A DNA stretch of 64,000 nucleotides from Curvibacter sp. GWA2_63_95 (GTDB lineage Bacteria > Pseudomonadota > Gammaproteobacteria > Burkholderiales > Burkholderiaceae_C), in contig MGPB01000019.1 of the NCBI GenBank assembly GCA_001795455.1, forward strand, positions 36,630 through 100,629. Reading direction: 5' to 3'. The translations under genes and the position numbers were made by a program. Positions 954-44,739 of this stretch are shown piece after piece. Position 1 is the stretch's first letter. Every line of letters starts with the position of its first letter. The notes under the pieces were generated by a model that was not told the origin of the DNA, searched no databases, and was given only the letters and a program-made list of their open reading frames with translations.

Positions 954-2456
954 ATGAACGCCCCCGCCTCCGCCAGCACCGCCGATTTGCTATCAAAAAC
1001 AGAGCTGCTTTCGCATATTCTGCGAGGGCTTGCACCCTATTTGGCACCACACTCCCTGCTCTACCAGACCGAAGACACCACACCCTACGAATGCGACGGG
1101 CTGACCGCCTACCGCCAGCGCCCGCTGCTGGTGGCGCTGCCCGAGACCGAGGAGCAGGTGGCGGCCGTGCTCAAGGTCTGCCACAGCCTGAACGTGCCGG
1201 TGGTGGCGCGCGGCGCGGGCACCGGCCTGTCGGGCGGGGCCATGCCGCACGCGCTGGGCGTGACGCTGTCACTGGCCAAGTTCAACAAGATCCTCAAACT
1301 GGACAAGCGCAGCCGCACGGCGGTCGTGCAGTGTGGTGTGCGCAACCTGGCTATCAGCGAGGCGGCCTCACCGCTGGGCCTGTACTACGCACCCGACCCA
1401 TCCAGCCAGATCGCCTGCACCATAGGCGGCAACGTGGCCGAGAATTCGGGCGGCGTGCACTGCCTGAAATACGGCTTGACGCTGCACAACGTGCTGAAGG
1501 TGCGCGGCTTCACCATGGAGGGCGAACCGATTGAATTTGGCGGCGACGCACTGGACGCCCCCGGCTACGACCTGATGAGTGTGGTGGTGGGCAGCGAGGG
1601 CATGCTGGCCGTCATCACCGAAGTGACCGTGAAGCTGGTGCCCAAGCCGCAACTGGCACGCTGCATCATGGCCAGTTTTGACGATCTGCGCAAAGCCGGT
1701 GACGCGGTGGCCGCCGTCATTGCGGCCGGCATCATCCCCGCCGGGCTGGAGATGATGGACAAGCCCATGACCGCGGCCGTAGAAGATTTTGTGCATGCGG
1801 GTTACGACCTGAGTGCCGAGGCGATTTTGCTGTGCGAAAGCGACGGCACACCCGAAGAGGTGGAAGAAGAGATTGGCCGCATGACCGAGGTGCTGCGCAG
1901 TGCGGGTGCCACCGGCATTGCGGTCAGCAACAGCGAGGCCGAACGCCTGCGCTTCTGGAGCGGACGCAAAAACGCCTTCCCGGCCAGTGGCCGCATCAGC
2001 CCCGACTACATGTGCATGGACAGCACCATCCCCCGTGCGCGGCTGGCCGACATCCTGCTGGCGATTGCCGAGATGGAGAAGAAGTACCAGCTGCGCTGCG
2101 CCAATGTGTTCCACGCGGGCGACGGCAATCTGCACCCGCTGATCCTGTTCGATGCCAACGACGCTGACCAGCTGCGCCGCTGCGAACTGTTTGGCGCCGA
2201 GATTCTGGAAACCAGTGTGGCCATGGGCGGCACGGTGACCGGCGAGCACGGCGTGGGCGTGGAAAAACTCAACAGCATGTGTGTGCAATTCAGCGCCGAA
2301 GAAAACGCGCAAATGTTTGCGCTCAAGGCCGCGTTTGACCCCAAGGGCCTGCTCAATCCCGGGAAGGTGATTCCGACGCTGCAGCGCTGCGCCGAATACG
2401 GCCGCGAGCTGGTGCGCGGCGGCAAGATCAAGCACCCGGACTTGCCCCGGTTCTAG
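954..2456 (+). CDS. glcD: FAD-linked oxidase, glycolate oxidase subunit GlcD
   Basis: ARGAGTGLSGG FAD loop, PDPSSQIACTIGGN, HAGDGNLHP, GEHGVG motifs; start placed at ATG 954 (ORF track opens at 924). Confidence 0.88.
   Translation: MNAPASASTADLLSKTELLSHILRGLAPYLAPHSLLYQTEDTTPYECDGLTAYRQRPLLVALPETEEQVAAVLKVCHSLNVPVVARGAGTGLSGGAMPHALGVTLSLAKFNKILKLDKRSRTAVVQCGVRNLAISEAASPLGLYYAPDPSSQIACTIGGNVAENSGGVHCLKYGLTLHNVLKVRGFTMEGEPIEFGGDALDAPGYDLMSVVVGSEGMLAVITEVTVKLVPKPQLARCIMASFDDLRKAGDAVAAVIAAGIIPAGLEMMDKPMTAAVEDFVHAGYDLSAEAILLCESDGTPEEVEEEIGRMTEVLRSAGATGIAVSNSEAERLRFWSGRKNAFPASGRISPDYMCMDSTIPRARLADILLAIAEMEKKYQLRCANVFHAGDGNLHPLILFDANDADQLRRCELFGAEILETSVAMGGTVTGEHGVGVEKLNSMCVQFSAEENAQMFALKAAFDPKGLLNPGKVIPTLQRCAEYGRELVRGGKIKHPDLPRF
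986..1045 (+). repeat. AT-rich dispersed repeat family A, copy 1 (in frame in glcD)
   Basis: TTTGCTATCAAAAACAGAGCTGCTTTCGCATATTCTGCGAGGGCTTGCACCCTATTTGGC matches consensus TGCTATnAAAnnnnTAGCTGCTTGCGCAn...GGGCTAGAGGCCTATTTG. Confidence 0.8.
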
Positions 2457-2532
2457 GCCCGACAAGAGCCCCCCAGGGTTTGCTGAAACACAGTGCAGAG
2501 ATGCACACCCCGCCAGCTTCGTATTTCTCATC

Positions 2533-2561
2533 TTGACGCCTGGGCCCAAGCGGGTTTCAAT
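2533..2561 (+). promoter_or_regulatory. sigma70-like promoter of the Bor-like gene
   Basis: TTGACG (2533-2538), 17 bp spacer, TTCAAT (2556-2561); predicted transcript start coincides with hairpin CAGCCTGTG-aga-CACAGGCTG. Confidence 0.5.
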
Positions 2562-2621
2562 GGCCTGCAGCCTGTGAGACACAGGCTGTCTGTCTGCAAA
2601 CTCACTTAGGGAGATTCTTGA

Positions 2622-2918
2622 ATGATGAAATCAGCTTTCACCGTCATCACCGCCGTCGCGCTGCTGAGCGGTTGCGCCAACCAACGCTTCAACGTCGCGG
2701 GTGAACTCTCGGCTACGCCGACCGCCAAAGCCGAAGACAGCCAGACCTTCTTTGTCAGCGGCATTGGGCAAATGAAGTCGGTGGACGCTGGCAAGGTGTG
2801 TGGCGGTGCCGACAAAGTCACCGGCGTTGCCGTAGAGCAGTCGGCCACCGATGTGCTGCTTGGCATGGTCACCCTGGGCATCTACACACCCCGCACCGCC
2901 CGCGTGTACTGCAAATAA
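2622..2918 (+). CDS. Bor/Iss-family outer-membrane lipoprotein
   Basis: Lipobox LLSGC, FFVSGIGQ, CGGADKV and LGIYTPRTARVYC match lambda Bor family motifs; RBS AGGGAG upstream. Confidence 0.88.
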   Translation: MMKSAFTVITAVALLSGCANQRFNVAGELSATPTAKAEDSQTFFVSGIGQMKSVDAGKVCGGADKVTGVAVEQSATDVLLGMVTLGIYTPRTARVYCK

Positions 2919-2939
2919 ACCAGCCTCTGACGCAAATCC

Positions 2940-2965: not shown

Positions 2966-2982
2966 CGGGCCTTTACGCATCG

Positions 2983-3046
2983 TTTTTAAGTCAAATAGAC
3001 CTCTAGCCCGCATGAAATATGCGCGACCAGCTCCTTATTTAGGAGC
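2983..3046 (-). repeat. Repeat family A, copy 2 (intergenic)
   Basis: Reverse complement GCTCCTAAATAAGGAGCTGGTCGCGCATATTTCATGCGGGCTAGAGGTCTATTTGACTTAAAAA. Confidence 0.85.
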
Positions 3047-3061
3047 GCCGCATCCGCAACA

Positions 3062-3721
3062 TCAGGCGACCGTGGCCCGCGCCAACATGCGGCTCACCGC
3101 GCGCGGGTCCAGGCCGTACATGTCGGCAAAGGCGTCCAGCGATTTGCCACTGGCTTTGAAAGCCTGCAGCAGCGCCTCGGTCTTGGCAGCGCGGGCATTG
3201 GCTTGCGCCATGGCCTCGTCGAGCACGGCATTGGCGGCTTCGTCGCGGCTGCGCACTAGTTCGCTGTAGGCTTGGGGTGTCAGGCCCGAGGCCTCACAAG
3301 CCACCACGATGCGCTGCACGAGCTTGGGGCGCAGGTCTTCCTTGCTGCGGGTCTGGCGGCGGCGAAACACTTCCAGCAGCGCGTGGTGCACATGCTCGGG
3401 GGCCATTGCCTCCACCGCCTGGCCTTGCAGGTCGTAGCGGTCACCCCCCGAGGCCACCGCCGTCAGGTAGCGGGTCGACCGGGTGTGGTGGGCCAACGCT
3501 GTCTTGAGGCTGTCGCGCTCGAAGGCGTCGGGATGGGCCTCCAGCAGGTCCTGAAAGATGCCGCGCTTCATGGGCTGGAACGTGGCGCCAAACATCTGGG
3601 GGTACAAGGCCGCCATGTGCTCCAACACCGGCAAAACATCGGGCCTGGAAGCCCGCTTGGACGGGGCCACAGGGGCATCGGCAGCCAGTGTTTCGGGTGG
3701 GATTGGCAAGGTGTCTGTCAT
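3062..3721 (-). CDS. ProQ/FinO-family RNA chaperone
   Basis: YPQMFG..QPMKRGIFQDL, LKTALAHHTRSTRYL, RYDLQG motifs. Confidence 0.85.
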   Translation of the reverse strand: MTDTLPIPPETLAADAPVAPSKRASRPDVLPVLEHMAALYPQMFGATFQPMKRGIFQDLLEAHPDAFERDSLKTALAHHTRSTRYLTAVASGGDRYDLQGQAVEAMAPEHVHHALLEVFRRRQTRSKEDLRPKLVQRIVVACEASGLTPQAYSELVRSRDEAANAVLDEAMAQANARAAKTEALLQAFKASGKSLDAFADMYGLDPRAVSRMLARATVA

Positions 3722-6694: not shown

Positions 6695-8551
6695 TCAGCC
6701 GAGCTTGCACTCTTTCTTCAGCTGCACGATCAATCGGGTGACGGTGGACGAGGCCTCCGAGAACGGCGTGCCGTTGCCCAGCATGTCTTGCGCGCGCGCG
6801 GCCTGGCCTTGGTTGATCGTCTGCGCCACTTGACCGGCAGCCACATGGAATTTCTGGTGCGCCTGAATCAGCGCACTGAAACTGGGCACGCCGGCGCATT
6901 TGCCGTTGGCACCCGCCCCGTGCAACCACTTGCCCAATTCACAGCAGTCATCGCGGCTGACCGTTTCCGCATCCAGGGTTTCATGGCGCTGCGCCGCCAG
7001 GCGCAGTTTGGAACGCCAATCCGCGTGGGCCTTGATGGCGTTGTCCAGGTTGATGCCCGCCCCGCCAGCCGGCAGGCGCGGCGCAGCTGAATGGGCAGCC
7101 ACCAGTGCAGGCACCACGCCAGTTGCACTGGCGGTGTTGCCGCGAAACACCGCCACGGTGTGCACCAGGTCCTGCGCCTGGCTGCGCAGGCTGCCCGCTG
7201 CGGCGGCCATTTCCTCCACCAGCGCGGCGTTTTGCTGGGTGGCCTGGTCCATCTGGGCCACGGCGTCGCGAACCTCTGCCACTCCGGTGGCCTGGGCAGC
7301 ACTGGCCGCGCTGATTTCACCCACGATCTCGGTCACCCGGCGGATGCTTCCCACCACCTCGGTCATGGTCTCGCCTGCGTGATTGACCAAGGCGCTGCCC
7401 TGCTCCACACGCTCCACGCTGTCGCTGATGAGCGTTTTGATTTCTTTGGCGGCTTCGGCGCTGCGGCCAGCCAGGCTGCGTACCTCACTGGCCACCACCG
7501 CAAAGCCGCGGCCTTGCTCTCCGGCGCGGGCAGCTTCTACCGCTGCGTTCAGTGCCAGGATATTGGTCTGGAAGGCAATGCCGTCGATGACGCTGATGAT
7601 GTCGCTGATCTTGCGCGAGCTGTCATTGATGCCCTGCATGGTCTGCACCACCTGGGCCACCACCTCACCGCCTTTGGCGGCGGTTTGGCTGGCGGCCAGG
7701 GCCAGGGTGTTGGCCTCGCGGGCGTTGTCAGCCGACAGGCTGACGGCACCGGTGAGTTGCTCCATGCTGCTGGCAGTGCGCTGCAGATTCGCGGCGGTCT
7801 GTTCGGTGCGGTTGCTCAGGTCCTGGTTGCCGCTGGCAATTTCGGAGCAGGCCACCTCAATGCTGGCCGAGCTGCTGCGCACGGCGGCCACGGCGACCTC
7901 CATACGGCCCAGGGTGGCCTTGAGCGAGTCGCCGCCGCGGGTGCTGGTGAGCGTGCCCCGCACATCGAGGGAGATGCTGTCCTCCCGGTTCACATGGGCC
8001 ACCAGAATACGCAGCTCGTCGCCTTCGCGGGCGGCCCGGGCCATGTTGATGGCCATGACCGCTTCCACGCCCGACTGGATCACCACATACAGCGCGTGGA
8101 TGACGATGCGGCCAAAGTCCGCTTCGGTGGTGCAATACAGGCCAAAACCCGCCGCCTGCAAGCGGTCAAATGCCACGTGGTGCACCGCAAACAGGGCGGC
8201 ACCAAAGACGATGACACGCCAGTCACGGTAGACCAGAAACAAGGCCAGCGCCACAAACACGCCGAAGTGCATCTCCGACATGCCGCGGGCCAACTGGATA
8301 TGCAGGGCCACAAAAGACACCAGGACAAAGGTCAGCACAAAACGGCTGGCCACGGTGTAGCGGGCCAGCCCAAACACACCAAAGGCCAGGGCCAGCAAGA
8401 CCAGTGTGGCGGTGAGGGCCAGGCCCGAGTCGACAAAGTTCACGCCCAGGGCGATGCTGACCACCGCGGCCAGGCAGATATAGCTGAGCAGGACGCGGTC
8501 GCCCAGCATGGCCAGGGCCTCCATGCTGGAGATGGTTTTTTTGGATGTCAT
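6695..8551 (-). CDS. Methyl-accepting chemotaxis protein with multi-TM N-terminus and C-terminal CZB domain
   Basis: [30 protein letters not shown] signalling hairpin; [23 protein letters not shown] motif; start at ATG 8551. Confidence 0.9.
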
Positions 8552-8787: not shown

Positions 8788-10980
8788 GTGATTCCAGACC
8801 CTGACCCTCTCCCCCCCACCGCTGCGCCGATCTCTTCCGCACTGGACGAGTTGCACCTGCCCCACCGCTTTCGGGCCTGGAGCGGCTCCCAGTTCGAAGA
8901 CGACAGTGACAACCTCTGGAAATTGGCCCTGGAAGGCTCTGGCGCTGGGGCCTGGGACTGGAACCTGATCACCGGCGAACAAATCCACTCCCAACGCTGG
9001 CAGCAAATGCTGGGCTACGAGGTCGGCGAAATTGCCGACGCCAACCACGAGTTTGTGAGCCGCGTCCACCCGGACGACCTGCCCCACGTGAGCGCGGCAT
9101 TCACCGACTACCTGCAGGGCCGCATCCCCAGCTACGCCGCGGATTTGCGCCTGCGCTGCAAGGACGGCCACTGGAAGTGGATCCACACGCGTGGCACGGT
9201 GGTGAGCCGCAACGCCCAGGGCCAACCACTGCGCATGATTGGCACCCACACCGACATCACCGATCGCAAGGCCGCCGAGATCGCCCTGCGCGACAGCGAA
9301 GAACGCTGGAAACTGGCACTGGAGAGCACCGGCGACGGCGTGTGGGACTGGCACATTGCCAGCGGGCGCGAATACTTCAGCAAACGCCTGGTGGAGATGT
9401 ACGGCTTTACCGAAGACGAACTGGCCGACCGGCCCGAAGAGCTCGACCAACGCACCCACCCGGACGATGTAGAGGCCATGCAGCGAGACCGCCAGGCCCA
9501 CTTCGACGGCATGACCCCCACCTACTCCAACGAACACCGCGTGCGGTGCAAAGACGGCAGCTGGAAATGGGTGCACACCCGCGGCATGGTGATCAGCCGC
9601 GACGCCAACGGCACGCCTGCCCGCATGATTGGCACGCACACCGACATCACCGACCGCAAGAACGCCGAAGCCCAGGTACGCCAGCATGCCTATTTCGACC
9701 CCCTGACCGGCCTGCCCAACCGGCGCATGCTGCGCGACCGGCTGGAGCAGGAAATCAAACGCAGCCGACGCGACGGCCTGCAACTGGCCATTCTGTTCAT
9801 CGACCTGGACCACTTCAAGGAAGTCAACGACACCCTGGGCCATGACAACGGCGACCTGCTGCTGGTAGAGGCAGCGCGCCGCCTGCGCCAGTGCGTGCGC
9901 GAATGCGACACCGTAGCCCGCATGGGCGGCGACGAGTTCACCGTGCTGCTCACCGAGCTGGCGCCCGACACCCACCTGGAGCAGCTGCTGCACAAGCTGC
10001 TACAGACCATGGCCCAGGTATTCCAGCTCGGGCAGGAGCAGGTGTTTGTGTCGGCCAGCGTGGGCGTCACGCTCTACCCGGCCGACGGCACCGAGCTGGA
10101 GGCGCTGTACAAAAACGCCGACCAGGCGCTGTATGTGGCCAAGGGCGCAGGGCGCAACCGCTTCAGCTTCTTCACCCCGGCGCTCCAGGAAGCTGCGCTC
10201 ACGCGTGCCCGGCTGACCAACGACTTGCGCCACGCAGTGGGCCAGCAGCAGTTGCAGCTGCTCTACCAGCCCATCGTGGCGCTGGCCAGTGGCGCCGTGC
10301 ACAAGGCCGAGGCCCTGCTGCGCTGGCGCCACCCCGAGCGCGGGCTGATCAGCCCGGCCGCATTCATCCCCATGGCCGAGACCAGTGGCCTGATCGTGCC
10401 CATGGGTGACTGGGTGTTTGAGCAGGCTGCGCTGCAGGTGCAGGCCTGGCGCCGCAGCCTGGCACCGACCTTTCAGATCAGCATCAATACCTCGCCCGTG
10501 CAGTTCCAGCACACCCAGCTGCCCGACGCCAACTGGGTGCGGCGCCTGGCGGCCATGGGTCTGCCCGGCGACAGCCTGTCCATCGAAATCACCGAAGGCG
10601 TGTTGCTGGACAGCAATGACGGTGTGACCGCCAAGCTGCTGGAGTGGCGCGACGCGGGACTGCAGGTGGCGCTGGACGACTTCGGCACCGGCTATTCCTC
10701 CCTGTCCTACCTGTTGAAGTTCGACATCGACTTCATCAAGATCGACCAGTCCTTTGTGCGCGACCTGCAGCCGGGGTCCACCAACTTCACGCTGTGCAAA
10801 GCGATGGTGGCCATGGCCCATGCGCTAGGCCTGCAGGTGGTGGCCGAGGGGGTGGAAACCGCCCAGCAGCGCGACCTGTTGATCGACGCGGGGTGCGACT
10901 ACGCGCAGGGCTACTTCTTTGCCCGGCCCATGACCGCCCCGGCCCTGGCGGAGTGGGTGACGCAGCAAGCCCCGGCATGA
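8788..10980 (+). CDS. PAS-PAS-GGDEF-EAL c-di-GMP signalling protein
   Basis: Two near-duplicate PAS_3/PAC repeats (RVHPDD, CKDG.WKW), RMGGDEF, KAEALLRW, DDFGTGYSSL. Confidence 0.92.
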   Translation: MIPDPDPLPPTAAPISSALDELHLPHRFRAWSGSQFEDDSDNLWKLALEGSGAGAWDWNLITGEQIHSQRWQQMLGYEVGEIADANHEFVSRVHPDDLPHVSAAFTDYLQGRIPSYAADLRLRCKDGHWKWIHTRGTVVSRNAQGQPLRMIGTHTDITDRKAAEIALRDSEERWKLALESTGDGVWDWHIASGREYFSKRLVEMYGFTEDELADRPEELDQRTHPDDVEAMQRDRQAHFDGMTPTYSNEHRVRCKDGSWKWVHTRGMVISRDANGTPARMIGTHTDITDRKNAEAQVRQHAYFDPLTGLPNRRMLRDRLEQEIKRSRRDGLQLAILFIDLDHFKEVNDTLGHDNGDLLLVEAARRLRQCVRECDTVARMGGDEFTVLLTELAPDTHLEQLLHKLLQTMAQVFQLGQEQVFVSASVGVTLYPADGTELEALYKNADQALYVAKGAGRNRFSFFTPALQEAALTRARLTNDLRHAVGQQQLQLLYQPIVALASGAVHKAEALLRWRHPERGLISPAAFIPMAETSGLIVPMGDWVFEQAALQVQAWRRSLAPTFQISINTSPVQFQHTQLPDANWVRRLAAMGLPGDSLSIEITEGVLLDSNDGVTAKLLEWRDAGLQVALDDFGTGYSSLSYLLKFDIDFIKIDQSFVRDLQPGSTNFTLCKAMVAMAHALGLQVVAEGVETAQQRDLLIDAGCDYAQGYFFARPMTAPALAEWVTQQAPA

Positions 10981-11038: not shown

Positions 11039-14000
11039 TCAATGCAGGCTGGCCAGCAGCGCCGCATTGCCACCCGCGGCGGTGGTGTTCACGGTCACCG
11101 TCTGCTCCGCGCAGAAGCGGAACAGGTAGTGCGGGCCGCCGGCTTTGGGGCCGGTGCCTGACAGGCCTTCGCCACCGAAAGGCTGCACCCCCACCACGGC
11201 GCCAATCATGTTGCGGTTGATGTAGATGTTGCCCACATGCGCCGCGTTTGCCAGCGCCTGGGCGCGGCTGTCGATGCGGGTCTGGATGCCCAGCGTGAGG
11301 CCGTAGCCCAGCGCGTTGATATGTGCGATCACGTCCTCGGGGTTGCTGGTATCCCCCGTGCCCCAGCGCACCACCTGCAGCACCGGGCCGAAAATTTCGG
11401 CCTTCACCTGGGCAATGCTGGCCACCTCGAAAGCATGTGGCGCGATCAGATTTGCTATTAAATTAGTAGCTGTTTGCGCACTATTTACGGGCGCTACAAG
11501 CACTTTTGACTCATTTTTCAGACGGTCGATGTGGCGCTGGATGTTGTCATAGGCCTCCCGGTCGATCAACGGCCCCAGGTCCGTGGCCAAGTCGGCCGGC
11601 GTGCCCACCTGCAACTCCTGGGCCGCCCCTTGCAGCATCTCGATCACACCGTCGGCAATGGCTTGGTGCACCACCAACAGGCGCAGTGCAGAGCAGCGCT
11701 GGCCGGCCGAGCGGAAGGCGCTTTGCACCACCGCGTCCACCACCTGTTCGGGCAGCGCGCTGCTGTCCACCAGCATGGCGTTGATGCCACCGGTCTCGGC
11801 AATCAGCGGCACGATGGGGCCGTCTTTGGCGGCCAGCGCGCGCTGGATGATCTTGGCCACCTGGGTGGAACCGGTGAACACCACACCAGCCACGCCGGGC
11901 TGCGCCACCAGGGCGGCGCCTACGGTTTCGCCCGCACCATGCAGCAGTTGCAAGGCATCGGCGGGCACGCCAGCGGCCACCATCAGGTCCACTGCGGCTT
12001 TGGCCACGCCTGGGGTTTGCTCGGCCGGCTTGGCCAGCACCGTGTTGCCCGTCGCCAAGGCGGCGGCCACCTGGCCCATGAAGATGGCCAGCGGGAAGTT
12101 CCAGGGGCTGATGCAGACCCAGACGCCACGCGCCGTGAGGCGCAGGGTGTTGGTCTCGCCGGTCACGCCGTACTGGTAGCCGGCTTGTGCGTTGGCGACC
12201 ACGGGACACTGAATGGGCTGCATGATGCGCTGCGCCTCGTCGGCGTAATAGCGCAGGAAGTCCACGGCCTCGCGCACCTCGCTCACCGCGTCACCCCAAG
12301 TCTTGAAGGCTTCTTTGACCAGCAGTGCGCAGAACTGCGGCATGGCGGCCTGCAGCGCATCGGCAGCGCGACGCAGCACCACGGCGCGCTCTTCGACGGG
12401 AACCTTGCTCCATTTTTGATAGCTGCTTGCGCAGGCAGCATAAGCATCAGGCACCCGTTTGGTATCAAACTCGGGCACCACCGGCACCGGGGTGGCCGGC
12501 AGGGCAGCCAGCAACGGGTCGCGCATGGTGGCCACGGTCAGGTCCAGGCCGGTGCTGTTGGCGCGGCTGCCCGGGTGCGTGCCAAACAGGTCGGCCGGCA
12601 ATGGCAGGCTGGGGTGGGGCTCCAGGCGCAGGGGCGAGATCAGCAGCTCCTCCATGCCCACCGACTCGTCGGCCAACTGGTGCACAAAGCTGGAGTTGGC
12701 GCCGTTTTCCAGCAGGCGGCGCACCAGGTAGGCCAACAAATCTTTGTGCGCGCCCACAGGGGCGTAGACGCGGCAGGCGACCAGGGGGTTCTTCAACACC
12801 TCGCGGTACACCCCTTCACCCATGCCGTGCAGGCGCTGCAGCTCAAACGGTGCGCCACTTTTGGCGCCCATTTGCAAAATGGCAGCGATGGTCGCCGCGT
12901 TGTGGGTGGCGAACTGGGGGTAGATGGCATCCGGCGCCGCCAGCAGTGCACGGGCGCAGGCCAGGTAGGACACATCGGTGTGGTGCTTGTGGGTGAACAC
13001 CGGGTAGTGCGGCAGGCCCAACTCCTGGGCGCGCTTGATTTCGGCGTCCCAGTAGGCGCCCTTGACCAGCCGGCACATCAGCTTGATCTGGTACTTGCGG
13101 GCCAGCACGGTGACGTGCTCGATGAGCTCCAGCGCACGGGTCTGGTAGGCCTGCATGGCCAGGCCCAGGCCGGTCCACTGCGGGCAGTGGCGGGCCACCA
13201 GCACCAGCAGGGCTTCCAGCACTTCGAGCGACAGCTCCAGGCGGTCCACCTCTTCCGCGTCAATGGTCAGGTTGATATGGGCCGCCGCAGCCGCTTCGCA
13301 CAGCGTCCAGACGCGGGGCACCAGCGCGTCCAGCACCGCCTGGCGGTGCGCGTCTTCGTAGCGCGGGTAGAGCGCGCTCAGCTTGATGGAAATACCATCG
13401 TTTTCGGCCAGTGCGCCCGTCTTGCTTGCGCGAGCAGCTATGAAATCAATAGCATCACCATAACTCTTCAAATAGCGCAACGCGTCCTTGTCGGTGCGGG
13501 CACCCTCGCCCAGCATGTCGTAGCTGAAGCGCACATTGGCTTTTTTGCGTGCGGCATCGGCCTCCTTCATCGCCTCGGGCATGGTCTGGCCCAGCACGAA
13601 CTGGCGGCCCAAGAGCTGCACGGCACGCAGGGTGGCCGCCACCACCGTGCGCGCACCCAACTTGGCCATGAGACCAGGCTCGTTCTGCGCATCGGGCAAA
13701 AAGTGTTTGGACAGCGCAATGGCCGTACTGGACAGGCGCGCGAGCACCTTGTCGCCGCTGGCCTCGAAGTCAGCGCGGCCCAGTTGGTCGGTGGTCAGCG
13801 CGATGGCGGTCTCGGCATCCGGCACCCGCAGCAGGGCTTCGGCCAGGCGCATCAGGGCCAGACCTTCGGCGCTGGAGATGGGGTATTCCTTGAGCAGGCT
13901 TTCCATGGCCCAGAAGGGCGGCGGGTTCTCGCGCACGGCCTGCACCCAAGGTTCGGCGGTGCGGGCGGCATGGGCCCAGTACAAGGTGCCGTCCAATTGC

Positions 14001-14074
14001 TGCAGACGCTGCGCAACGATTTCGCTCTCCGGGCGGTAGGGGGTGGGCAAACGGGGGGGGACGGCTTGGAACAT
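11039..14074 (-). CDS. putA: Bifunctional proline dehydrogenase / P5C dehydrogenase (no N-terminal RHH domain)
   Basis: SYDMLGEGA, GISIKLSAL, RLVKGAYWD, FATHNA, ISPWNFPLAIF, AETGG, SAGQRCSA, EIFGPVL; GGAG RBS before ATG 14074. Confidence 0.95.
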   Translation of the reverse strand: MFQAVPPRLPTPYRPESEIVAQRLQQLDGTLYWAHAARTAEPWVQAVRENPPPFWAMESLLKEYPISSAEGLALMRLAEALLRVPDAETAIALTTDQLGRADFEASGDKVLARLSSTAIALSKHFLPDAQNEPGLMAKLGARTVVAATLRAVQLLGRQFVLGQTMPEAMKEADAARKKANVRFSYDMLGEGARTDKDALRYLKSYGDAIDFIAARASKTGALAENDGISIKLSALYPRYEDAHRQAVLDALVPRVWTLCEAAAAAHINLTIDAEEVDRLELSLEVLEALLVLVARHCPQWTGLGLAMQAYQTRALELIEHVTVLARKYQIKLMCRLVKGAYWDAEIKRAQELGLPHYPVFTHKHHTDVSYLACARALLAAPDAIYPQFATHNAATIAAILQMGAKSGAPFELQRLHGMGEGVYREVLKNPLVACRVYAPVGAHKDLLAYLVRRLLENGANSSFVHQLADESVGMEELLISPLRLEPHPSLPLPADLFGTHPGSRANSTGLDLTVATMRDPLLAALPATPVPVVPEFDTKRVPDAYAACASSYQKWSKVPVEERAVVLRRAADALQAAMPQFCALLVKEAFKTWGDAVSEVREAVDFLRYYADEAQRIMQPIQCPVVANAQAGYQYGVTGETNTLRLTARGVWVCISPWNFPLAIFMGQVAAALATGNTVLAKPAEQTPGVAKAAVDLMVAAGVPADALQLLHGAGETVGAALVAQPGVAGVVFTGSTQVAKIIQRALAAKDGPIVPLIAETGGINAMLVDSSALPEQVVDAVVQSAFRSAGQRCSALRLLVVHQAIADGVIEMLQGAAQELQVGTPADLATDLGPLIDREAYDNIQRHIDRLKNESKVLVAPVNSAQTATNLIANLIAPHAFEVASIAQVKAEIFGPVLQVVRWGTGDTSNPEDVIAHINALGYGLTLGIQTRIDSRAQALANAAHVGNIYINRNMIGAVVGVQPFGGEGLSGTGPKAGGPHYLFRFCAEQTVTVNTTAAGGNAALLASLH
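11451..11518 (+). repeat. Repeat family A, copy 3 (inside putA, antisense)
   Basis: TTTGCTATTAAATTAGTAGCTGTTTGCGCACTATTTACGGGCGCTACAAGCACTTTTGACTCATTTTT. Confidence 0.88.
12406..12469 (+). repeat. Repeat family A, copy 4 (inside putA, antisense)
   Basis: TGCTCCATTTTTGATAGCTGCTTGCGCAGGCAGCATAAGCATCAGGCACCCGTTTGGTATCAAA. Confidence 0.75.
13401..13454 (-). repeat. Repeat family A, copy 5 (inside putA, sense)
   Basis: Reverse complement TGCTATTGATTTCATAGCTGCTCGCGCAAGCAAGACGGGCGCACTGGCCGAAAA. Confidence 0.78.
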
Positions 14075-14092
14075 ACGCACTCCATGAAATGT

Positions 14093-16969: not shown

Positions 16970-18937
16970 ATGAGCAACGTGATCGCCGGTGATGCCGGAT
17001 TTGGGTCTTTTTTCCGGTATCACGGTTGGCTGTCGCCGGGAGTCCGCCTGTTTCGACGGCTGAACTTCCCTGCCAAGGCGGGCTGGATTGCGGTGATGTT
17101 TCTGATACCGCTGACCATCATGCTGGGGGACCTGTGGAAAGCCAGCAACGACCAGGTGGAGTTCGCCCGCTCGGAATTGCTGGGTGTGGCCTATGTCCAA
17201 CCCTTGCATGACCTGATCCAGGTCGCGCAGGGACGGCGTCTAGCGGCCATGGATGGGGCCTCAGACCTCGACACCTGGAAGACCAAGGTAAGCGATGCTT
17301 TTGCCAAACTGGCAGAACAAAACAAGGCCAACGGCCAAACACTGGGAACGGGTCGCGCGTACGCTGCCGTCGAGACAGCCCATCAGGCCCTGCTGAACGC
17401 GCCTGTTGGCGCAGACCCCACGGCAACCTTCAATGCCCATAGCGCCTACATCGCGCTCTTGCTGGAACTGGGGCGAGAGGTGGCAGATACCTCACAACTG
17501 GCGCTGGATCCGGAGCTGGACACTTTTCATTTGATGAACTACGCCGTGCTGTTTGGCCCGCAACAAACAGACAATGTGTCCAAACTTACCGCCTTGGGCA
17601 AACTGGTGCTGAAAACCGGAAGCAAAACAGCCGACCAAAACGAAGACCTGGTCATGTTTGCAGGTGTTTTGGCCTTTGTCGACGGGATTGTTGAAAACAG
17701 TTATCTCAAGGCGGTGGCAGCAGAGGGCCTCAAAGACCCGGATGCCAAGTACGGCATGGCCCAGAACGACCAGCTGTATGACGACTTCGGCAAGGCCCTG
17801 AAAACCATGGTGCTTGGCGAAAAGGTGGAAGGTGACCCGAACCAACTGGAGCAGATGGGCACGGCCTCCGCGCGCGCAGAGCACGCCCTGAACACCAAAC
17901 TGATGGAGCGTCTGCGGTCCCGCCTGGAAGAGCGCGTGGGACAGATGCAAGCCCAGTTCCTGCAACAACTGGGGATTGCGGTGTTGTTTGTGGCCTTGGC
18001 GTTTTACATGCTGCTGGCGTTTTACAAAGTGATGATGGGGGGCCTGCGCGAGGTAACCGGGCACCTGGAGCAAATCAGCCAAGGCAACCTGATTACGGCC
18101 CCCACCCCGTGGGGCAAGGACGAGGCGGCCCACCTGATGATTACCCTGCGGGACATGGAGGCCAGCTTGCGCGTGATCGTGCGTGACACCTTGGACGGTG
18201 CGGCCAATGTCAATACGGCCAGCGAAGAGATTGCCTCCGCGTCACAAGACCTGTCGCGCCGCACCGAGGCCAGCGCGGCCGCTCTGGAGGAAACCGCGGC
18301 CACCATGACGCAGATTGCAGAAACCGTGCAGCGCACCTCCGACACGGTATCGGGCGCCGCCGACATTGTTCGCGCCAACGCCCGCTCGGCCCAACACGGC
18401 GGGGAGGTGATCTCACAGGTCGAGCAGACCATGCAAGGCATCAATGCCTCGTCCAGCAAGATTTCCGAAATCATCAGCGTCATCGACGGCATCGCCTTCC
18501 AAACCAACATCCTGGCCCTGAATGCGGCGGTAGAAGCAGCGCGTGCCGGTGAGCAGGGTCGCGGTTTTGCGGTCGTGGCCAGCGAGGTGCGCTCACTCGC
18601 CGGGCGCAGTGCCGAGGCAGCCAAGGAAATCAAGACCCTCATCAACGCCAGCATTGAGCAAGTTGAAAAAGGCACCCAGGTGGTGGGCGAGGCGGGCACC
18701 GCCATTGCGGACATTGTGGGGAACGCCGGGCGCATTGACAGCTTGATGACCGAAATCGCCAACGCCACCAAGGAGCAATCGGCAGGTGTCGGTCAGGTGG
18801 GCGCCGCGGTGCACGACCTGGACCAAAACACCCAACAAAATGCCGCCTTGGTGGAAGAAACCGCCGCTGCGGCCACCGCGCTGTCGGACCAGGCCGAGCG
18901 CCTGGCGCAGGTGGTGTCATTTTTCAAACTCAAATAA
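16970..18937 (+). CDS. Methyl-accepting chemotaxis protein
   Basis: Two TM segments, HAMP and [26 protein letters not shown] signalling domain. Confidence 0.92.
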
Positions 18938-20181: not shown

Positions 20182-20235
20182 AATCTGCCAAGCGTACCAA
20201 ACCCTTCCCAGCCCATCTCAGCGAAAGAGGATTCC

Positions 20236-21279: not shown

Positions 21280-21283
21280 CTGT

Positions 21284-38316: not shown

Positions 38317-38634
38317 TTACACATCAGTTACCGACGGCAAGGCCCAGCCCAGCAGCTCGGCCAAGCGGCACACCACCCACTGCGCCTCAGGCGGTGTGAC
38401 CACCGCCGCCTCGCCATGCAGCCCCTGGCGAACGCGCGACAACACATCCGACTCGGCCAAGCCCAGGCTGAACTCCATGTCTTTGGCCGTGGTGGTGAGC
38501 AGATTGGCCAGGTCTTCACACAGCTCGTAGCGCTGCGCCACCTCCGGCCAGGGCGTACTCAGGCGCTGGCGCCGGGTGTCGGTGTACAGCAGCAAAAAGC
38601 TCTGGGGAATCTCGATCTGGTAGTCGTCAGACAT
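38317..38634 (-). CDS. Conserved hypothetical protein
   Basis: MSDDYQIEIPQSF... about 105 aa, host-like codon usage. Confidence 0.65.
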   Translation of the reverse strand: MSDDYQIEIPQSFLLLYTDTRRQRLSTPWPEVAQRYELCEDLANLLTTTAKDMEFSLGLAESDVLSRVRQGLHGEAAVVTPPEAQWVVCRLAELLGWALPSVTDV

Positions 38635-38691
38635 GGGGCCGTCCCTGCAGGTCGGTGCGGGCCTGCACCGCAAGACAGGCCATGCACCTCA

Positions 38692-38757
38692 TTTATAAGC
38701 AAAATAGGGCTCTAGCCCTCGTGGAATATGCGCGGATAGCTACTAACTTAATAGCAA
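38692..38757 (-). repeat. Repeat family A, copy 8 (intergenic, abuts helicase stop)
   Basis: TTTATAAGCAAAATAGGGCTCTAGCCCTCGTGGAATATGCGCGGATAGCTACTAACTTAATAGCAA. Confidence 0.9.
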
Positions 38758-39996
38758 TCACGCAAGTGGCGGCAACAAACCAGCCGCGCGCAGCTTGTCT
38801 TTTTTGCTGGGGCGGTGGCCCTTGATGCCGCCACCCAACGTAGCCACCGGCACGGTGGCCGTGGGCGCAAAGCCGGCCACCTGCTCGCGCGCAATGGTGG
38901 TGCGATGGCGTTTTTCGATCAGGCGGAAATGCGACTCCATGTCCGCCGTGACAAAACTCACCGCCAGGCCACTGGCACCGGCGCGCGCGGTGCGGCCAAT
39001 GCGGTGGGTGTAGTCGGTGGCCGAGCGCGGCAGGTCAAAGTTGACCACCACCGGCAGGTCGCTGATGTCGATGCCGCGGGCCGCAACATCGGTGGCCACC
39101 ACCACCTGGATGGCGGAAGCCTTGAAATCCATCAGCACCTGGGTGCGTTTGCCCTGGCTCAGCTGGGCATGGAAAGGCTCGGCCAACAGGCCGGCCCGGC
39201 GCAACTTGTCGGCCACCATCTCGGCCGCGTATTTGGTCGCCACAAACACCAGCACCCGGCTCCAGCCGTGTTCGGCAATCAAGTGGCGCAGCAGCTGGGT
39301 GCGCTGGCTGGCGTCCACCTGGATGGCGCGCTGGGCGATGTCGGGCTGCTCGCCCTCCTCGGCCACCACATTCACTTCCACCGGGTTGTGCAGGCTGGCC
39401 TGCGCCATGGTGCGCACGCCAGCAGAAAAGGTTGCCGAATACAGCAGGCTCTGGTGGCGTGCCGGCAGCAGGCCGCGGATGCGGTCAAGCTCCTGTGCAA
39501 AGCCCAGGTCCAGCAAGCGGTCGGCCTCGTCCAGCACCAGGGTCTCCACGCCGCCCAGGCTCAGCGCGCGGTGGTCCACCACATCGAGCAAACGGCCCGG
39601 CGTGGCCACCACGATGTCGGTGCCGCCACGCAGGCCCATGAGCTGCGGATTGATGGAGACCCCACCAAACAACACAGTTACCCGGGCCGCCTGGCCTGCG
39701 TGCTGGGCCAGGGTGCGCAGCGTGTCGCCGACCTGGGTGGCCAGCTCGCGCGTGGGCACGACCACCAGTGCGGCAGCGTGGCGAGATTTGGGCCCCGTGC
39801 GGCTGGCCAGTTGCGCCAGCAACACCATGGCATAGGCCGCGGTTTTGCCCGAGCCCGTTTGCGCACAGGCCAGCACATCCTGCCCACCCAGGGCCACGGG
39901 CACGGTCTGGGCTTGCACGGGCGTGGGCAACACAAAGCCCTGCAGCACCATGGCGTGGGCCAGTGCGGGGGAAATACCGAGGTCGGAAAAGGGCAT
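38758..39996 (-). CDS. DEAD-box RNA helicase (RhlE-like)
   Basis: Q motif PTPVQ, AQTGSGKT, PTRELA, DEAD, SAT, HRIGRTAR. Confidence 0.93.
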   Translation of the reverse strand: MPFSDLGISPALAHAMVLQGFVLPTPVQAQTVPVALGGQDVLACAQTGSGKTAAYAMVLLAQLASRTGPKSRHAAALVVVPTRELATQVGDTLRTLAQHAGQAARVTVLFGGVSINPQLMGLRGGTDIVVATPGRLLDVVDHRALSLGGVETLVLDEADRLLDLGFAQELDRIRGLLPARHQSLLYSATFSAGVRTMAQASLHNPVEVNVVAEEGEQPDIAQRAIQVDASQRTQLLRHLIAEHGWSRVLVFVATKYAAEMVADKLRRAGLLAEPFHAQLSQGKRTQVLMDFKASAIQVVVATDVAARGIDISDLPVVVNFDLPRSATDYTHRIGRTARAGASGLAVSFVTADMESHFRLIEKRHRTTIAREQVAGFAPTATVPVATLGGGIKGHRPSKKDKLRAAGLLPPLA

Positions 39997-40136
39997 GGAG
40001 TGGGGAAGGTAAAGAGGAAAACCGGCAAGGCGGGCCCTGCAACGAACCGGGCTGGCGACCCGGATCGGTCCGCTGCGTGCGGGTGTGTAGTGCATTTTAG
40101 GTCGCCGGCCTCCCGCGCGCGCAAAAACACGGCGCC

Positions 40137-42250: not shown

Positions 42251-42256
42251 GGGATT

Positions 42257-43015: not shown

Positions 43016-43024
43016 GTGGCCAGC

Positions 43025-43089
43025 TTCAAGCCAAATTGGCCTCTAGCCCCCGCAGATATTGCGCGAGCAGCTACTATATTGATAGCAAA
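43025..43089 (-). repeat. Repeat family A, copy 9 (supplies last codons and stop of the 43074-43625 gene)
   Basis: TTCAAGCCAAATTGGCCTCTAGCCCCCGCAGATATTGCGCGAGCAGCTACTATATTGATAGCAAA; minus strand TTG CTA TCA ATA TAG. Confidence 0.9.
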
Positions 43090-43625
43090 CTGGCCTGGAG
43101 CACCTGGGGGCTTGGAGCGTAGGCGAAGCGCTGCGGCAGGTCTGCCCGGCGCACCTCATGCAAAGCCCACAGCCCTTGCTCCAGCGCCTGCGCGGCGCGG
43201 CCCGTGTCTTGGGTGTGGACCAGGCCAAAGCCCAGATCGGTATGGAGGTAGAGCCAACCTTCTTCGTCCAGCAGGGCTTGTTGCACCTGTGCGGGAGCAC
43301 CTGTGTGGGCCACCACCACACCATCGTCGGCTACACGCCAGACCCAAGGCGTGGCCTCCAGCTCCACAAACACACGCTGCGGACCGTTCTGGAAGAACCA
43401 GCGCCCGCTGGCATCGGCCGCATAGTTGCGCTGGATAAAGTCAATCAGCTTTTCGTGTTGCAGGCGGCTCCCCTTGGCGCCGGCTTGGCCGCTGGCAAAC
43501 GCGCCCTGCGCCTGGGCCGCGTCGTCGCGCATAAACCATTGGCCACGTGCGTCCAGACCCAGCCAACCGTAGCAGTCCGGCACATTGGGCCATTTGGCCA
43601 TGGCTTGTTTGACGATGTCGTCCAT
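43074..43625 (-). CDS. DUF2946-like conserved protein
   Basis: MDDIVKQAMAKWPNVPDCYGWLGLDARG, FFQNGPQRVFVEL. Confidence 0.8.
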   Translation of the reverse strand: MDDIVKQAMAKWPNVPDCYGWLGLDARGQWFMRDDAAQAQGAFASGQAGAKGSRLQHEKLIDFIQRNYAADASGRWFFQNGPQRVFVELEATPWVWRVADDGVVVAHTGAPAQVQQALLDEEGWLYLHTDLGFGLVHTQDTGRAAQALEQGLWALHEVRRADLPQRFAYAPSPQVLQASLLSI

Positions 43626-43634
43626 GGACCGCCT

Positions 43635-44690
43635 TCAGGTCAGGTGACGGTTTAGCCAGCCGCCCACGGCGTCGGGCATGGTGCGCACATGGCCGGGCAC
43701 CGGCCCTTGCGGAAAACCCACATGGCCACCGTGCGCAGGCTGCCACAGCGTGACATGTGTGCCCACCTCGCCCTGCGAGGGCAGGCACCAGGCCGGGACA
43801 AAGGGGTCGTTGCGCGCATTGACCACCAGCGCCGGCACGCGAATGGCGGCCAGATGGGGCTTGGCCGAGGCGCGGGCCCAGTAGTCCTCGGTGCTGTGGA
43901 AGCCGTGCAGGGGCGCGGTAAAGATGTTGTCGAACTCGTAGAGGTCGCGTGCGGCCTTGAGCGCGGCACCATCGAACAGGCCTGGGTGCTGCTGCAGCTT
44001 GCGCAGGGCCTTGGGCACCATGGTATTGAGGAACATGCGGGTGTAGACCAGTCGGTTGAAGCCACGCCCAATGGCATAGCCGCCCGCCGCGAGATCGATG
44101 GGCGAGCACACGGCTGCCACGCCCCGCACCACCCGGGCAGCGCTGTCGCCCATCTCTTCGGCCCAGCGCAGCAGCGCGTTGCCGCCCAAAGAGACACCCA
44201 CCGCGAGGATGGGGCCGCGATGCTTGGCACGGAATTGCTCCAGCATCCATCCGACCTCGGCAAAGTCACCCGAGTGGTAGGCGCGGGGTGCGTGGTTCAG
44301 CTCGCCACCACAGCCCCGGAAATGCGGCACGGCGTAGGCCATGCCGTGGGTGCGGGCGAAGTCGGCAAAAGCCTCGGCGTAGTGGCTGCGCGAGCTGCCC
44401 TCCAGGCCGTGGAACAGCACCAGCAAGGGGCGCTCCTCCTCGCGCGACGTCGACGGCTGCAGCGCAGGGCCGCCCCAAGCAAGGCCAGCCCCCTCGGGGG
44501 GCAGCGACCCGTGCAGCGGCGGAGCGTGGGGGCTAGTCAGCCAGTCCACGTCCACAAAGTCAGCGTCCGGCGTAGCCCAGCGTTCACGCCGGTACTGCGG
44601 GTGCGGGCCGAACACGCGGTGCGAGTACAGCGCGGGCCAGATGGTCTGCAGGTTGCCGCCGGGCAACCAGCGGGGCGCTACATAATTCAT
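43635..44690 (-). CDS. YheT-family alpha/beta hydrolase
   Basis: PGGNLQTIW, FHGLEGSS, PHFRGCGG, GVSLGG nucleophile elbow, GGHVGF; start at ATG 44690 (alternative 44726). Confidence 0.9.
   Translation of the reverse strand: MNYVAPRWLPGGNLQTIWPALYSHRVFGPHPQYRRERWATPDADFVDVDWLTSPHAPPLHGSLPPEGAGLAWGGPALQPSTSREEERPLLVLFHGLEGSSRSHYAEAFADFARTHGMAYAVPHFRGCGGELNHAPRAYHSGDFAEVGWMLEQFRAKHRGPILAVGVSLGGNALLRWAEEMGDSAARVVRGVAAVCSPIDLAAGGYAIGRGFNRLVYTRMFLNTMVPKALRKLQQHPGLFDGAALKAARDLYEFDNIFTAPLHGFHSTEDYWARASAKPHLAAIRVPALVVNARNDPFVPAWCLPSQGEVGTHVTLWQPAHGGHVGFPQGPVPGHVRTMPDAVGGWLNRHLT
44462..44533 (-). repeat. Repeat family B, in-frame copy inside the YheT hydrolase
   Basis: Reverse complement GCCCCCACGCTCCGCCGCTGCACGGGTCGCTGCCCCCCGAGGGGGCTGGCCTTGCTTGGGGCGGCCCTGCGC, encoding PHAPPLHGSLPPEGAGLAWGGPA. 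Confidence 0.9.
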
Positions 44691-44739
44691 AGCTGCTTGC
44701 GCATATTCCACGGGCTCCAGAGGCATATTTAATGCAAAA
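44677..44739 (+). repeat. Repeat family A, copy 10 (spans stop of the NTF2 gene and start of yheT)
   Basis: GCTACATAATTCATAGCTGCTTGCGCATATTCCACGGGCTCCAGAGGCATATTTAATGCAAAA. Confidence 0.88.

Follow-up and report, generated by a model that had tools for sequence, protein, structure and literature searches.

Introduction

Several described repeat systems approach the one reported here. Rickettsia palindromic elements are 100–150 bp long and add a surface segment of 30–50 residues (Ogata et al. 2000, 2002, as summarised in PMC10969869 and PMC3733652). REP elements are GC-rich imperfect palindromes of 20–40 nt with compensatory stems, usually found in pairs or clusters (PMC3733652), and uptake sequences have 9–12-bp cores occurring at ∼1 per kb (PMC2817400, PMC3630211). 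In an unsupervised motif-pair screen, ATAGCT(N)22CAAAAG was reported from Polaromonas naphthalenivorans (125 copies, 14% in genes, near gene ends), and Rhodoferax ferrireducens had the most motif pairs of any genome (PMC5217627).

The window, which is the whole 64,000-nt stretch of Curvibacter sp. GWA2_63_95 DNA analysed here, carries ten copies of a 69-nt repeat that overlays native protein segments rather than adding new ones. The preferred explanation, which we regard as evenly poised between right and wrong, is that the repeats form an old REP-like family, dispersed in the genomes of Comamonadaceae, passed on by vertical descent and by now assimilated into proteins.

The repeat family

A profile search of the whole 3.88-Mb, Rhodoferax-like genome (nhmmer, E<0.01) detected 601 copies, or 1 per 6.5 kb, and none in the reversed genome at the same threshold. 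The ten sites listed in an earlier sequence-only reading all align significantly (nhmmer E from 1e-16 to 1e-4 over the whole genome, covariance model (CM) scores of 28–71 bits), which supports its view of AT-rich, rare-codon DNA forming one dispersed family. Its figure of at least 10 copies stands for the window, with no other significant copy between 44,745 and 64,000, and is a small part of the ∼600 present genome-wide. The unit is ∼69 nt, slightly longer than the ∼65 bp proposed, and as a multiple of three it encodes 23 residues. The ends are sharp, flanks carrying 0.01 bit per column. GC content is 47% against 63% for the genome; GCT, AGCT, CGCA, GGGCT and ATTT are nearly invariant and the variable columns remain A/T. 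Information content is 64 bits over 69 nt, and 600 sites would need log2(7.8e6/600)=13.7 bits. This excess over the needs of a binding site indicates that the copies originated by copying, and they derive from one common sequence.

The palindrome previously given as GCTAY-N8-RTAGC has a spacer of N7 (GCTAY-N7-RTAGC), and its RTAGC is internal, at columns 14–18 of a 58-nt model, where R is G in 52% of copies and the next position is T in 67%. The invariant part is GCT/AGC only. Stem columns vary independently, with no compensatory variation in the short palindrome (mutual information of candidate pairs 0.00–0.15, paired fractions equal to expectation), and RNAalifold finds 3 invariant pairs. 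Neither hallmark of a MITE was seen: consensus ends read against each other by eye form no terminal inverted repeat, and flanking k-mer identity, with no excess at any boundary or k, reveals no target-site duplication.

The family was found in 28 of the 61 genera sampled and in named records of Polaromonas, Rhodoferax, Acidovorax, Variovorax, Curvibacter, Simplicispira and Ottowia, and several genera have the same consensus. No formal description was found in the literature, just as the sequence-only reading knew of none.

Copies in the window

Five copies are internal to Pfam-confirmed genes (PutA three times, YggS and a HIBADH-like gene) and two are intergenic. Another lies in the N-terminal region of a GlcD-like protein, one forms the end and stop of a DUF2946 gene and one spans a SnoaL/hydrolase junction, and in this form the earlier claim that eight copies overlap coding sequences without breaking frame holds.

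Three copies are inside putA (11039–14080, minus strand). The full-length copy at 11449–11518 (plus strand, CM 58.8 bits) covers residues ∼855–877 in the aldehyde dehydrogenase (ALDH) domain and is read in an antisense frame (..SKVLVAPVNSAQTATNLIAN..), with a net gain of 7 residues relative to PutA 3HAZ. In same-genus species this site holds motif-like DNA in some and GC-rich DNA of equal length in others. A weaker copy at 12404–12473 (plus, 28.6 bits) encodes the conserved N-terminal helix of the ALDH domain (..AYAACASSYQKWSK..) and leaves no gap against 3HAZ; the same position scores 41 bits in genome G001 and 38 bits in G010. The partial copy at 13413–13455 (minus, 29 bits), in the proline dehydrogenase domain, is read in a sense frame (..DAIDFIAARASKTG..) and adds 1 residue relative to 3HAZ while retaining the native AIxxI residues; GC-rich synonymous versions occur in L007 and L010.

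A full-length, near-consensus copy at 19620–19687 (minus, 62 bits) lies within yggS (19483–20181, minus) in a sense frame (..PAIDFVAACAVFKRARGLFDALN..). The protein aligns without gaps to E. coli YggS 1W8G, and it has the same length in 17 relatives, five other families included, which share the D, F, K/R and L positions. The copy at 22821–22889 (plus, 35.6 bits) lies in the NAD-binding domain (..ATKSIAWCAEFAGASSQL..) of a 3-hydroxyisobutyrate/6-phosphogluconate dehydrogenase-like (HIBADH-like) gene (22633–23613, Pfam), with a net gain of 9 residues relative to 3W6U. At 984–1053 (plus, CM 47 bits, nhmmer E=3.5e-10), the copy reads ..LLSKTELLSHILRGLAPYL.. at residues ∼21–43 in the N-terminal region of a glcD-like FAD oxidase (predicted ORF 924–2456, Pfam), upstream of the FAD_binding_4 domain and within the N-terminal 40 codons as counted from a putative start codon.

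The best copy of the window, at 43024–43091 (minus, 70.6 bits), is flanked by a terminator-like hairpin on one side and on the other by the convergent DUF2946 gene (43074–43625, minus), to which it provides the last codons and the stop. Positional orthologues are present in G014, G013, G010 and G001, the last two without 23 nt. The copy at 44675–44742 (plus, 52 bits), at the junction of a SnoaL-like gene (stop 44729–44731) and an alpha/beta-hydrolase gene (43635–44726), holds the stop of the former and candidate start codons of the latter; it is found in the same four genomes, with the GCGCTACRTAATTCATAGC part nearly unchanged and one A/G difference in G013. The intergenic copy at 2981–3047 (minus, 57 bits) lies downstream of the stop of a ProQ-family gene (3062–3721, minus, Pfam). 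The other extragenic copy, 38690–38759 (minus, 61 bits), begins 1 nt past the stop codon of a DEAD-box helicase gene (38758–40095, minus) and has orthologous copies at the same place in G010, G001 and G004, though the neighbouring gene there differs from that in the window.

Effect on host proteins

Relative to homologues without the element, net changes are 0, 0, +1, +7, +9, +10, +12 and +14 residues, never the 23 that are encoded, and the earlier suggestion that peptide segments are added as by Rickettsia palindromic elements is not borne out. The larger gains are in loops or linkers (ProA +14, Cca +12, DapF +10), and the copies in XdhA and UvrD also occupy linkers. Residues encoded by the element fall on conserved native ones in YggS, PutA and Cca, where the coinciding motifs are D..F..K/R.L, AIxxI and TINxxA, respectively. 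Domains recognised by Pfam or PDB homology flank internal copies on both sides. Judged from the sequence, intragenic copies must be translated because they fill structurally required native segments.

Placement across the genome

Between 137 (strict) and 188 (lenient) copies, or 23–31%, are in frame inside coding sequences, a range being given because the gene calls were home-made, using a codon-usage log-odds score. Most of these (151 of 188, 80%) are read in one of the two open frames of the consensus, in line with the read-through in several frames noticed earlier. A further 93 copies, about 100, hold the stop codon of the host gene. For extragenic copies the median distance to a stop codon is 9 nt, the distances peak at exact offsets, and density per kb of spacer is 1.45 in convergent, 0.82 in tandem and 0.23 in divergent spacers. 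The repeats are thus mostly at gene 3′ ends, often touching or supplying the stop, and about a quarter are inside genes. Strand use is equal, with no replication or gene-orientation bias. Copy density is 10-fold lower in bins below 56% GC (0.18 per 10 kb) than in typical DNA (1.8 per 10 kb), and only 0.9% of neighbouring copies are <500 nt apart, against 7.9% expected. Internal copies score below intergenic ones.

Age and conservation

The highest identity between any two copies is 85.5%, and the longest exact stretch common to two copies is ∼14 nt. Every window copy tested has a positional orthologue in same-genus species, and same-length GC-rich versions of intragenic copies occur in some lineages. 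Copies retain their location even between species that have lost alignable spacers. Their length is fixed and the near-invariant positions named above are preserved: ∼80% of matches cover the model without a net indel and 90 copies are gap-free over 76 columns. Scores peak at 45–50 bits, and weak copies are few even when the threshold is relaxed to E<100. The peaked scores, the lack of indels and the survival of the core in otherwise unalignable spacers argue for constraint on the element.

The repeats are not detectably mobile today. The sequence-only reading had proposed a mobile element acting as a source of new protein sequence; the identity maximum, the missing target-site duplications, the depletion in low-GC DNA and the genus-wide sharing of tested copies speak against present mobility, and the repeats are not a current source of such sequence.

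A RAYT-type transposase gene

The genome has a single Y1_Tnp gene (RAYT-type HUH tyrosine transposase; contig C8, 203157–203837), and its stop codon is overlain by a repeat copy that is oriented opposite to the gene. This layout is conserved in several genera, occurring in G077 and G050 and, in weaker form, in G037 and G010, with copies on both sides of the gene in G077 only. A copy would be expected beside one given gene by chance in ∼9% of cases. The association is not specific, because a RAYT-like gene is also carried by 8 of 10 family members without the element. The gene is a candidate for the enzyme of past spread.

Origin of the repeats

Under the preferred explanation, an ancient REP-like family, the repeat would have spread long ago by copy-and-paste without target duplication, with the RAYT-type HUH tyrosine transposase as candidate enzyme. 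Only those copies would have survived that fell into one of the two open frames and at a site compatible with the protein. Upkeep would later have come from constraint on the DNA itself, most likely through recognition by a protein, while trimming removed dispensable codons or spacer bases beside the element and the variable columns adapted to the host protein. Where constraint lapsed, intragenic copies would have drifted to GC-rich codons at unchanged length. Copies may have been inserted and then trimmed, or may have overlain an equally long stretch. Insertion alone leaves the change of 0 or +1 at high-scoring full-length copies unexplained (YggS, 62 bits; the second PutA site, 41 bits in G001), so that it would need a matching loss of native codons, or else an overlay mechanism. 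The match of element residues with native motifs also resembles change in place, or homology-guided placement, more than random insertion. Further points against this reading are that no defining REP feature is clearly present, compensatory stems being absent and close pairs depleted, and that the RAYT association lacks specificity.

It is worth considering, as a less likely but serious prospect, that the repeat overwrites rather than interrupts. It would then be either a copy-and-overwrite (conversion-like) element or a self-recognition motif of unusual length that is driven into place. If so, 69 nt would replace the same length of native codons wherever the encoded helix can be accommodated, and ∼5% of the proteome would have been remodelled at unchanged protein length.

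The motif form of this idea, which we consider unlikely, is that a recognition motif accumulates in place, like uptake sequences (USS/DUS) or the sites of a chromosome-organising protein, and is written over coding sequence where tolerated, match-improving point changes being favoured either through selection or through a bias in uptake and recombination. It agrees with same-length overlay that retains native residues, codons that are GC-rich in one species and synonymously AT-rich in another, equal and unbiased strand use, absence from foreign DNA, a consensus common to several genera, and a conserved core with A/T spacers at fixed spacing and scores peaked high; uptake sequences are themselves known in preferred coding frames (PMC2817400). 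However, the 64 bits in the 69-nt unit exceed several-fold both the content of any known uptake or binding motif and the need of 600 sites, and one copy per 6.5 kb is sparse for such a signal. Uptake drive would not be expected to place copies close to genes with peaks at exact stop-codon offsets, several sites have net insertions of 7–14 residues, and helical phasing of the A/T tracts is weak (autocorrelation 0.1–0.2).

Somewhat less probable still is a copy-and-overwrite element, pasted by a conversion-like process or templated repair over a stretch of similar length that it replaces, seeded by short similarity such as that of GCTAT..ATAGC to codons for A-I-x-x-I-A. Such an element would reconcile the excess information, a sign of copying, with zero length change and the register-exact match to native motifs in YggS, PutA and Cca, and would account for the lack of target-site duplications. 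Yet no known mechanism pastes 69 nt over non-homologous DNA, shared exact stretches of ∼14 nt are too short for RecA-type conversion, random conversion tracts would not be expected to give full-length copies with exact ends, and no event of recent date was seen.

A non-autonomous MITE or RPE-like element that is active today, inserting into genes and adding a ∼23-residue segment, is very improbable: the discrete, sharp-ended unit of a multiple of three, the in-frame copies in several frames and the net gains at some loops or linkers (ProA, Cca, DapF; the XdhA and UvrD linkers) fit it, but present-day activity is largely refuted by the 85.5% identity ceiling with neither near-identical copies nor target-site duplications, by absence from low-GC islands and by genus-wide sharing of tested copies, and the gain is never 23 residues, being 0 or +1 at three sites.

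Comparison with known systems

Like Rickettsia palindromic elements, as far as these are described in the two summaries cited above, the repeats are short and dispersed, in frame within functional ORFs of many unrelated housekeeping genes, translated, and include old copies common to species. They differ in size (69 nt), in a net gain of 0–14 residues rather than the full element length, in encoded residues that align with native conserved positions, in a free-living GC-rich betaproteobacterial host and in affecting several times more genes (∼140–190).

DNA uptake sequences of Pasteurellaceae and Neisseriaceae likewise overlay coding sequence in preferred frames at unchanged length, use both strands equally, are absent from foreign DNA, are common to related genera and have a conserved core with A/T-rich flanks. 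Here, in contrast to a short core at ∼1 per kb with information near the need of the site number, 64 bits are spread over 69 nt at 1 copy per 6.5 kb, and copies cluster at stop codons.

The GTAG-tagged REP/RAYT systems (REPtrons, PMC3733652) are similar in having ∼600 copies, a preference for tandem and convergent spacers downstream of ORFs, ends that supply stop codons, occasional in-frame intragenic copies, no target duplication, an RTAG motif and one RAYT-like Y1 transposase gene with an adjoining copy. Unlike REP elements, the repeat is 69 nt, AT-rich and solitary, without the palindromic stem (its stem columns vary independently) or the pairing seen in BIMEs and REPINs, and the RAYT-like gene also occurs in relatives without it.

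The screen of PMC5217627 gave pentamer pairs and location percentages only, with no element model, frame analysis or orthologue comparison. The published spacing differs from the consensus of this genome, so identity is a matter of probability, and the Comamonadaceae motif pairs probably represent the same or a sister family.

A single dispersed repeat family

Pattern searches returned 19 matches to the core RTAGCTGCTTGCGCA against 6.7 expected, and 4 to GGGCTAGAGGCCTATTTG against 0.04 expected. An HMM built from the ten window sites and iterated over the whole Curvibacter sp. GWA2_63_95 assembly (3.88 Mb, 40 contigs) converged on 601 matches at E<0.01, with none in the reversed-genome control. 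The window corresponds to C19:36630-100629 of this assembly. All ten sites were significant (E from 1e-16 to 1e-4) and mutually alignable, so their assignment to one family by the sequence-only reading is upheld, though the palindrome that it gave as GCTAY-N8-RTAGC has a spacer of 7 nt (GCTAY-N7-RTAGC). A covariance model run over the window found no extra copy except a marginal 42-nt match at 55741, and a scan of the window at Rfam gathering thresholds matched a tRNA only. No description of the element was found in the literature.

The 58-nt consensus is TGCTATTAATTTAGTAGCTGCTTGCGCAGAATCCACGGGGGCTAGAGGCCTATTTGGC. Column information places the ends of the element about 3 nt upstream and 8 nt downstream of this consensus, giving about 69 nt in total, and drops to 0.01 bit per column outside them. 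The GC content is 47%, compared with 63% for the genome, and the information content of 64 bits is about five times that needed for 600 sites in 7.8 Mb of two-stranded sequence. For Comamonadaceae MAGs it is a strong lineage marker; it also gives rise to rare-codon stretches in host genes and can mislead gene callers on starts and stops.

A second dispersed repeat, GC-rich and about 75 nt long (GGGCCGCCCCAAG..AGCCCCCTnGGGGGGCAGCGACCCGnGCAGCGGCGGAGCGTGGGGGC), forms the inverted pair I2 at 44463-44533 and 22578-22648, and the genome has at least 45 copies of it, which are 77-97% identical. An alpha/beta-hydrolase gene contains an in-frame copy (..SPHAPPLHGSLPPEGAGLAWGGPA..), and a further copy extends over the initial bases of the longest HIBADH-like ORF (22633-23613), a little upstream of the start preferred in gene calling (22654). 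Matches of 90% identity occur in the relatives' genomes G004, G014 and G003. As its copies are more alike than those of the AT-rich family, this may be a younger or more active repeat. Tandem pilT/pilU-type ATPase paralogues at 20218-22571, which include direct repeats D2 and D5 and the Walker A sequence GPTGSGKSTT, are divergent from yggS, their usual neighbourhood. Two paralogous gene pairs have members less than 10 kb apart. Paralogues at 8788-10980 and 14313-16835, resembling GGDEF/EAL signalling proteins, share stretches of 74-90% identity (D4, D19), and those at 6695-8551 and 16970-18937 give a 323-nt inverted repeat (I1, 76%).

Location of the copies

According to Pfam host calls, three window copies are inside putA (11039-14080, minus strand) at 13413-13455 (site 1), 12404-12473 (site 2) and 11449-11518 (site 3), and one each is inside yggS, inside a gene for an HIBADH-like dehydrogenase and among the N-terminal 40 codons of a gene for a GlcD-like oxidase. 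A DUF2946 gene takes its C-terminal codons and its stop from one copy, and another covers both the stop of a SnoaL-like gene and the region where a hydrolase gene starts. The remaining two are extragenic, and one of these is 1 nt past a helicase stop codon. The outer end of this helicase-proximal copy coincides exactly with a break in synteny with G010, G001 and G004 (38560-38700), beyond which the three relatives have one neighbour gene in common and the window has another. The break hints that element copies may mark rearrangement junctions. G001 is also not collinear with the window in the ProQ region.

Genome-wide, copies were classified using a codon log-odds score trained on long ORFs, a copy counting as internal when both of its flanks show coding signal in a single open frame. 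This class includes 87 copies under a strict rule of 150-nt flanks, 137 when each flank must have a coding score of 40 bits or more, and 188, spread over 180 genes, under a lenient rule. The stop of the host gene falls inside a further 93 copies, 88 open into the 5' end of a downstream gene and are ambiguous in class, and 216 are intergenic. Only 10 copies have coding flanks that are in different frames or contain stops. Consensus-open frames, one sense and one antisense, are used by 151 of the 188 internal copies, as predicted for survival under selection for an intact ORF. The sampled hosts are ordinary core genes (ProA, DapF, CCA-adding enzyme, XdhA, UvrD, YgiQ and DnaX) with homology flanking the copy on both sides. 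If these counts hold, about 1 gene in 20 of a free-living bacterium includes a translated copy, and the core enzymes affected include PutA (three times), ProA, DapF, YggS, the CCA-adding enzyme, UvrD and DnaX.

Extragenic copies favour the 3' ends of genes, with densities of 1.45 per kb in convergent, 0.82 in tandem and 0.23 in divergent spacers. They lie a median of 9 nt from a stop codon, with sharp peaks at fixed stop offsets and no orientation preference. A 3'-UTR RNA element was rejected, as orientation relative to the upstream gene is unbiased (139 versus 156), and a replication-oriented motif (Chi or KOPS-like) was rejected as the element has no skew by GC-skew sign. Element density is ten-fold lower in low-GC bins, in agreement with which the low-GC right third of the window is empty of copies.

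Overlay on host proteins

Net length changes were read from alignments with solved structures and with relatives from other genera. There is no change in YggS (compared with E. coli 1W8G and five other Burkholderiales families) or at PutA site 2, and a gain of 1 residue at PutA site 1 and 7 at site 3 (all PutA sites against 3HAZ), 9 in the HIBADH-like protein (3W6U), 10 in DapF (5HA4), 12 in Cca (six other families) and 14 in ProA (4GHK). A PDB search with the CCA enzyme gave no match at the threshold used, and one with WaaA gave no informative coverage of the element site. As the element encodes 23 residues, each copy covers at least 9 native codons. Examples of the encoded stretches are AIDFVAACAVFK in YggS, VLVAPVNSAQTATNLIANLIAPHAFEVASIAQVK in PutA and CDPEALAILTSNMPLATVDTAQAATNFVANLVPATEQDWYEEYLAPIVSVK in ProA.

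Native residues are retained under the copies, namely A-I-x-x-I at PutA site 1, which is found in 3HAZ too, the family motif RRDLTIN-x-x-A in Cca, and the D, F, K/R and L positions that YggS has in common with outgroups. At these three sites the overlay is in register with the native motifs. The sequence-only reading took the element for a source of new protein sequence; in the aligned proteins, intragenic copies mostly do not add peptide. In some species of the same genus the same codons are GC-rich and non-motif-like at equal length, and the 12-residue segment of Cca is genus-wide, with motif-like DNA only in the closest relatives of the window. Removal at the RNA or protein level (intron, intein or bypass) was rejected, since ORFs stay continuous and the residues that the element encodes take the place of native segments required by the structure.

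Two sites show further changes. The CCA-adding enzyme (contig C24, 31442-32740) has an apparent second, C-terminal sense-frame peptide copy at residues ~395-415 (..ATDSIAARAISMGATGPKIGQF..), and outgroup enzymes have about 15 fewer residues in total, the first site accounting for 12 of them. In the putA loci of G001 and G010 (L002 and L003), a different, GC-rich insert of about 57 nt, worth 19 extra residues (..RFAQVKEEPAKRAGDTEQNALS..), interrupts the site 3 copy or takes the place of part of it, indicating that this loop has been remodelled more than once.

Conservation, age and spread

The element is being kept and is not decaying. Scores peak at 45-50 bits, and the tail of weak copies is almost absent even at E<100. 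About 80% of matches cover the model with zero net indel, and 90 full-length copies align gap-free over 76 columns with a mean column identity of 68%. Some columns are 97-100% conserved and others are free to vary yet still A or T. The core can be aligned between species where the surrounding spacers no longer align. Indels do occur, as the DUF2946 copy is missing 23 nt in G010 and G001. Internal copies score below intergenic ones, which fits a conflict with protein constraint. An RNA or DNA hairpin was rejected, as RNAalifold and mutual information revealed no covariation. Helical phasing of the A/T tracts is attractive by eye but is not relied on, the autocorrelation being just 0.1-0.2 at lags 21-24. 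Concerted evolution by gene conversion was judged unlikely given a mean copy identity of 57% and exact runs of at most about 14 nt.

There is no sign of present-day mobility, and the earlier proposal of a currently mobile element is not borne out. Among 598 copies compared over 69 columns, the top pairwise identity is 85.5%, and the median nearest-neighbour identity is 75%, against 71% for column-shuffled copies. Target-site duplications (k=2-8) were absent at all boundaries. Every window copy compared (the three putA sites and the yggS, helicase 3', DUF2946 and SnoaL/hydrolase copies) has positional orthologues in same-genus genomes, whose coding DNA is only ~70-77% identical to the window. 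Exact matches to a 27-nt core pattern are found in records under the names Polaromonas, Rhodoferax, Acidovorax, Curvibacter, Variovorax, Simplicispira and Ottowia, and the element model is positive in 28 of 61 sampled genera of the GTDB family, reaching the scoring cap in 13 of the 28.

A candidate transposase

The genome includes a single Y1_Tnp (RAYT-like) gene (contig C8, 203157-203837; HUH motif NHFHLL), with an element copy on its stop codon in the opposite orientation. This arrangement is also found in the relatives G077 and G050 and is faint in G037 and G010, and G077 has another copy some 600 nt upstream of the gene. The link is a lead, not proof, as any given gene has a ~9% chance of a 3' copy, the orthologous sites are not independent, and the gene is also present in 8 of 10 element-free relatives.

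Origin of the family

The evidence on origin is in conflict. An information excess of this kind marks copying from a common source, as opposed to convergence of independent sequences on a binding site, but the zero length change and retained native residues are not given by simple insertion. As part of the overall view that this is an old REP-like family under constraint, we consider the chances about even that the copies are ancient insertions that would later have been trimmed, and the deletion pressure behind such trimming would also account for extragenic copies abutting stop codons. That the element is a recognition motif put in place by drive or selection would have a precedent in uptake sequences (PMC2817400) but is unlikely given an information content that points to copying. 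A conversion-like overwrite, in which a copy would be laid over existing sequence, has the copying signature in its favour and is more doubtful still. An active element like the Rickettsia palindromic elements (RPEs) is very improbable when nothing indicates current movement. A small remaining probability is given to none of these readings. The unexplained overlay is what deserves further work. The conflict opens the old question of the origin and persistence of dispersed bacterial repeats to direct testing with strain-level genomes of Rhodoferax, Polaromonas or Acidovorax.

Comparison with known systems

The element is a real and striking repeat family, a variant of the REP and RPE kinds and not a currently active mobile source of protein sequence. 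MITEs were reportedly described in the Polaromonas JS666 genome paper. An unsupervised motif screen found a spaced pair in P. naphthalenivorans with 125 copies, 14% of them in genes, and the most motif pairs among all of its genomes in R. ferrireducens (PMC5217627). REPs that give stop codons or sit within ORFs have been documented in other taxa (PMC3733652), and RPEs are the classic translated repeats (PMC10969869). If the counts here hold, the scale would be several times that of the classic Rickettsia case, and the host belongs to a large-population, GC-rich lineage, from which selfish DNA should be purged efficiently.
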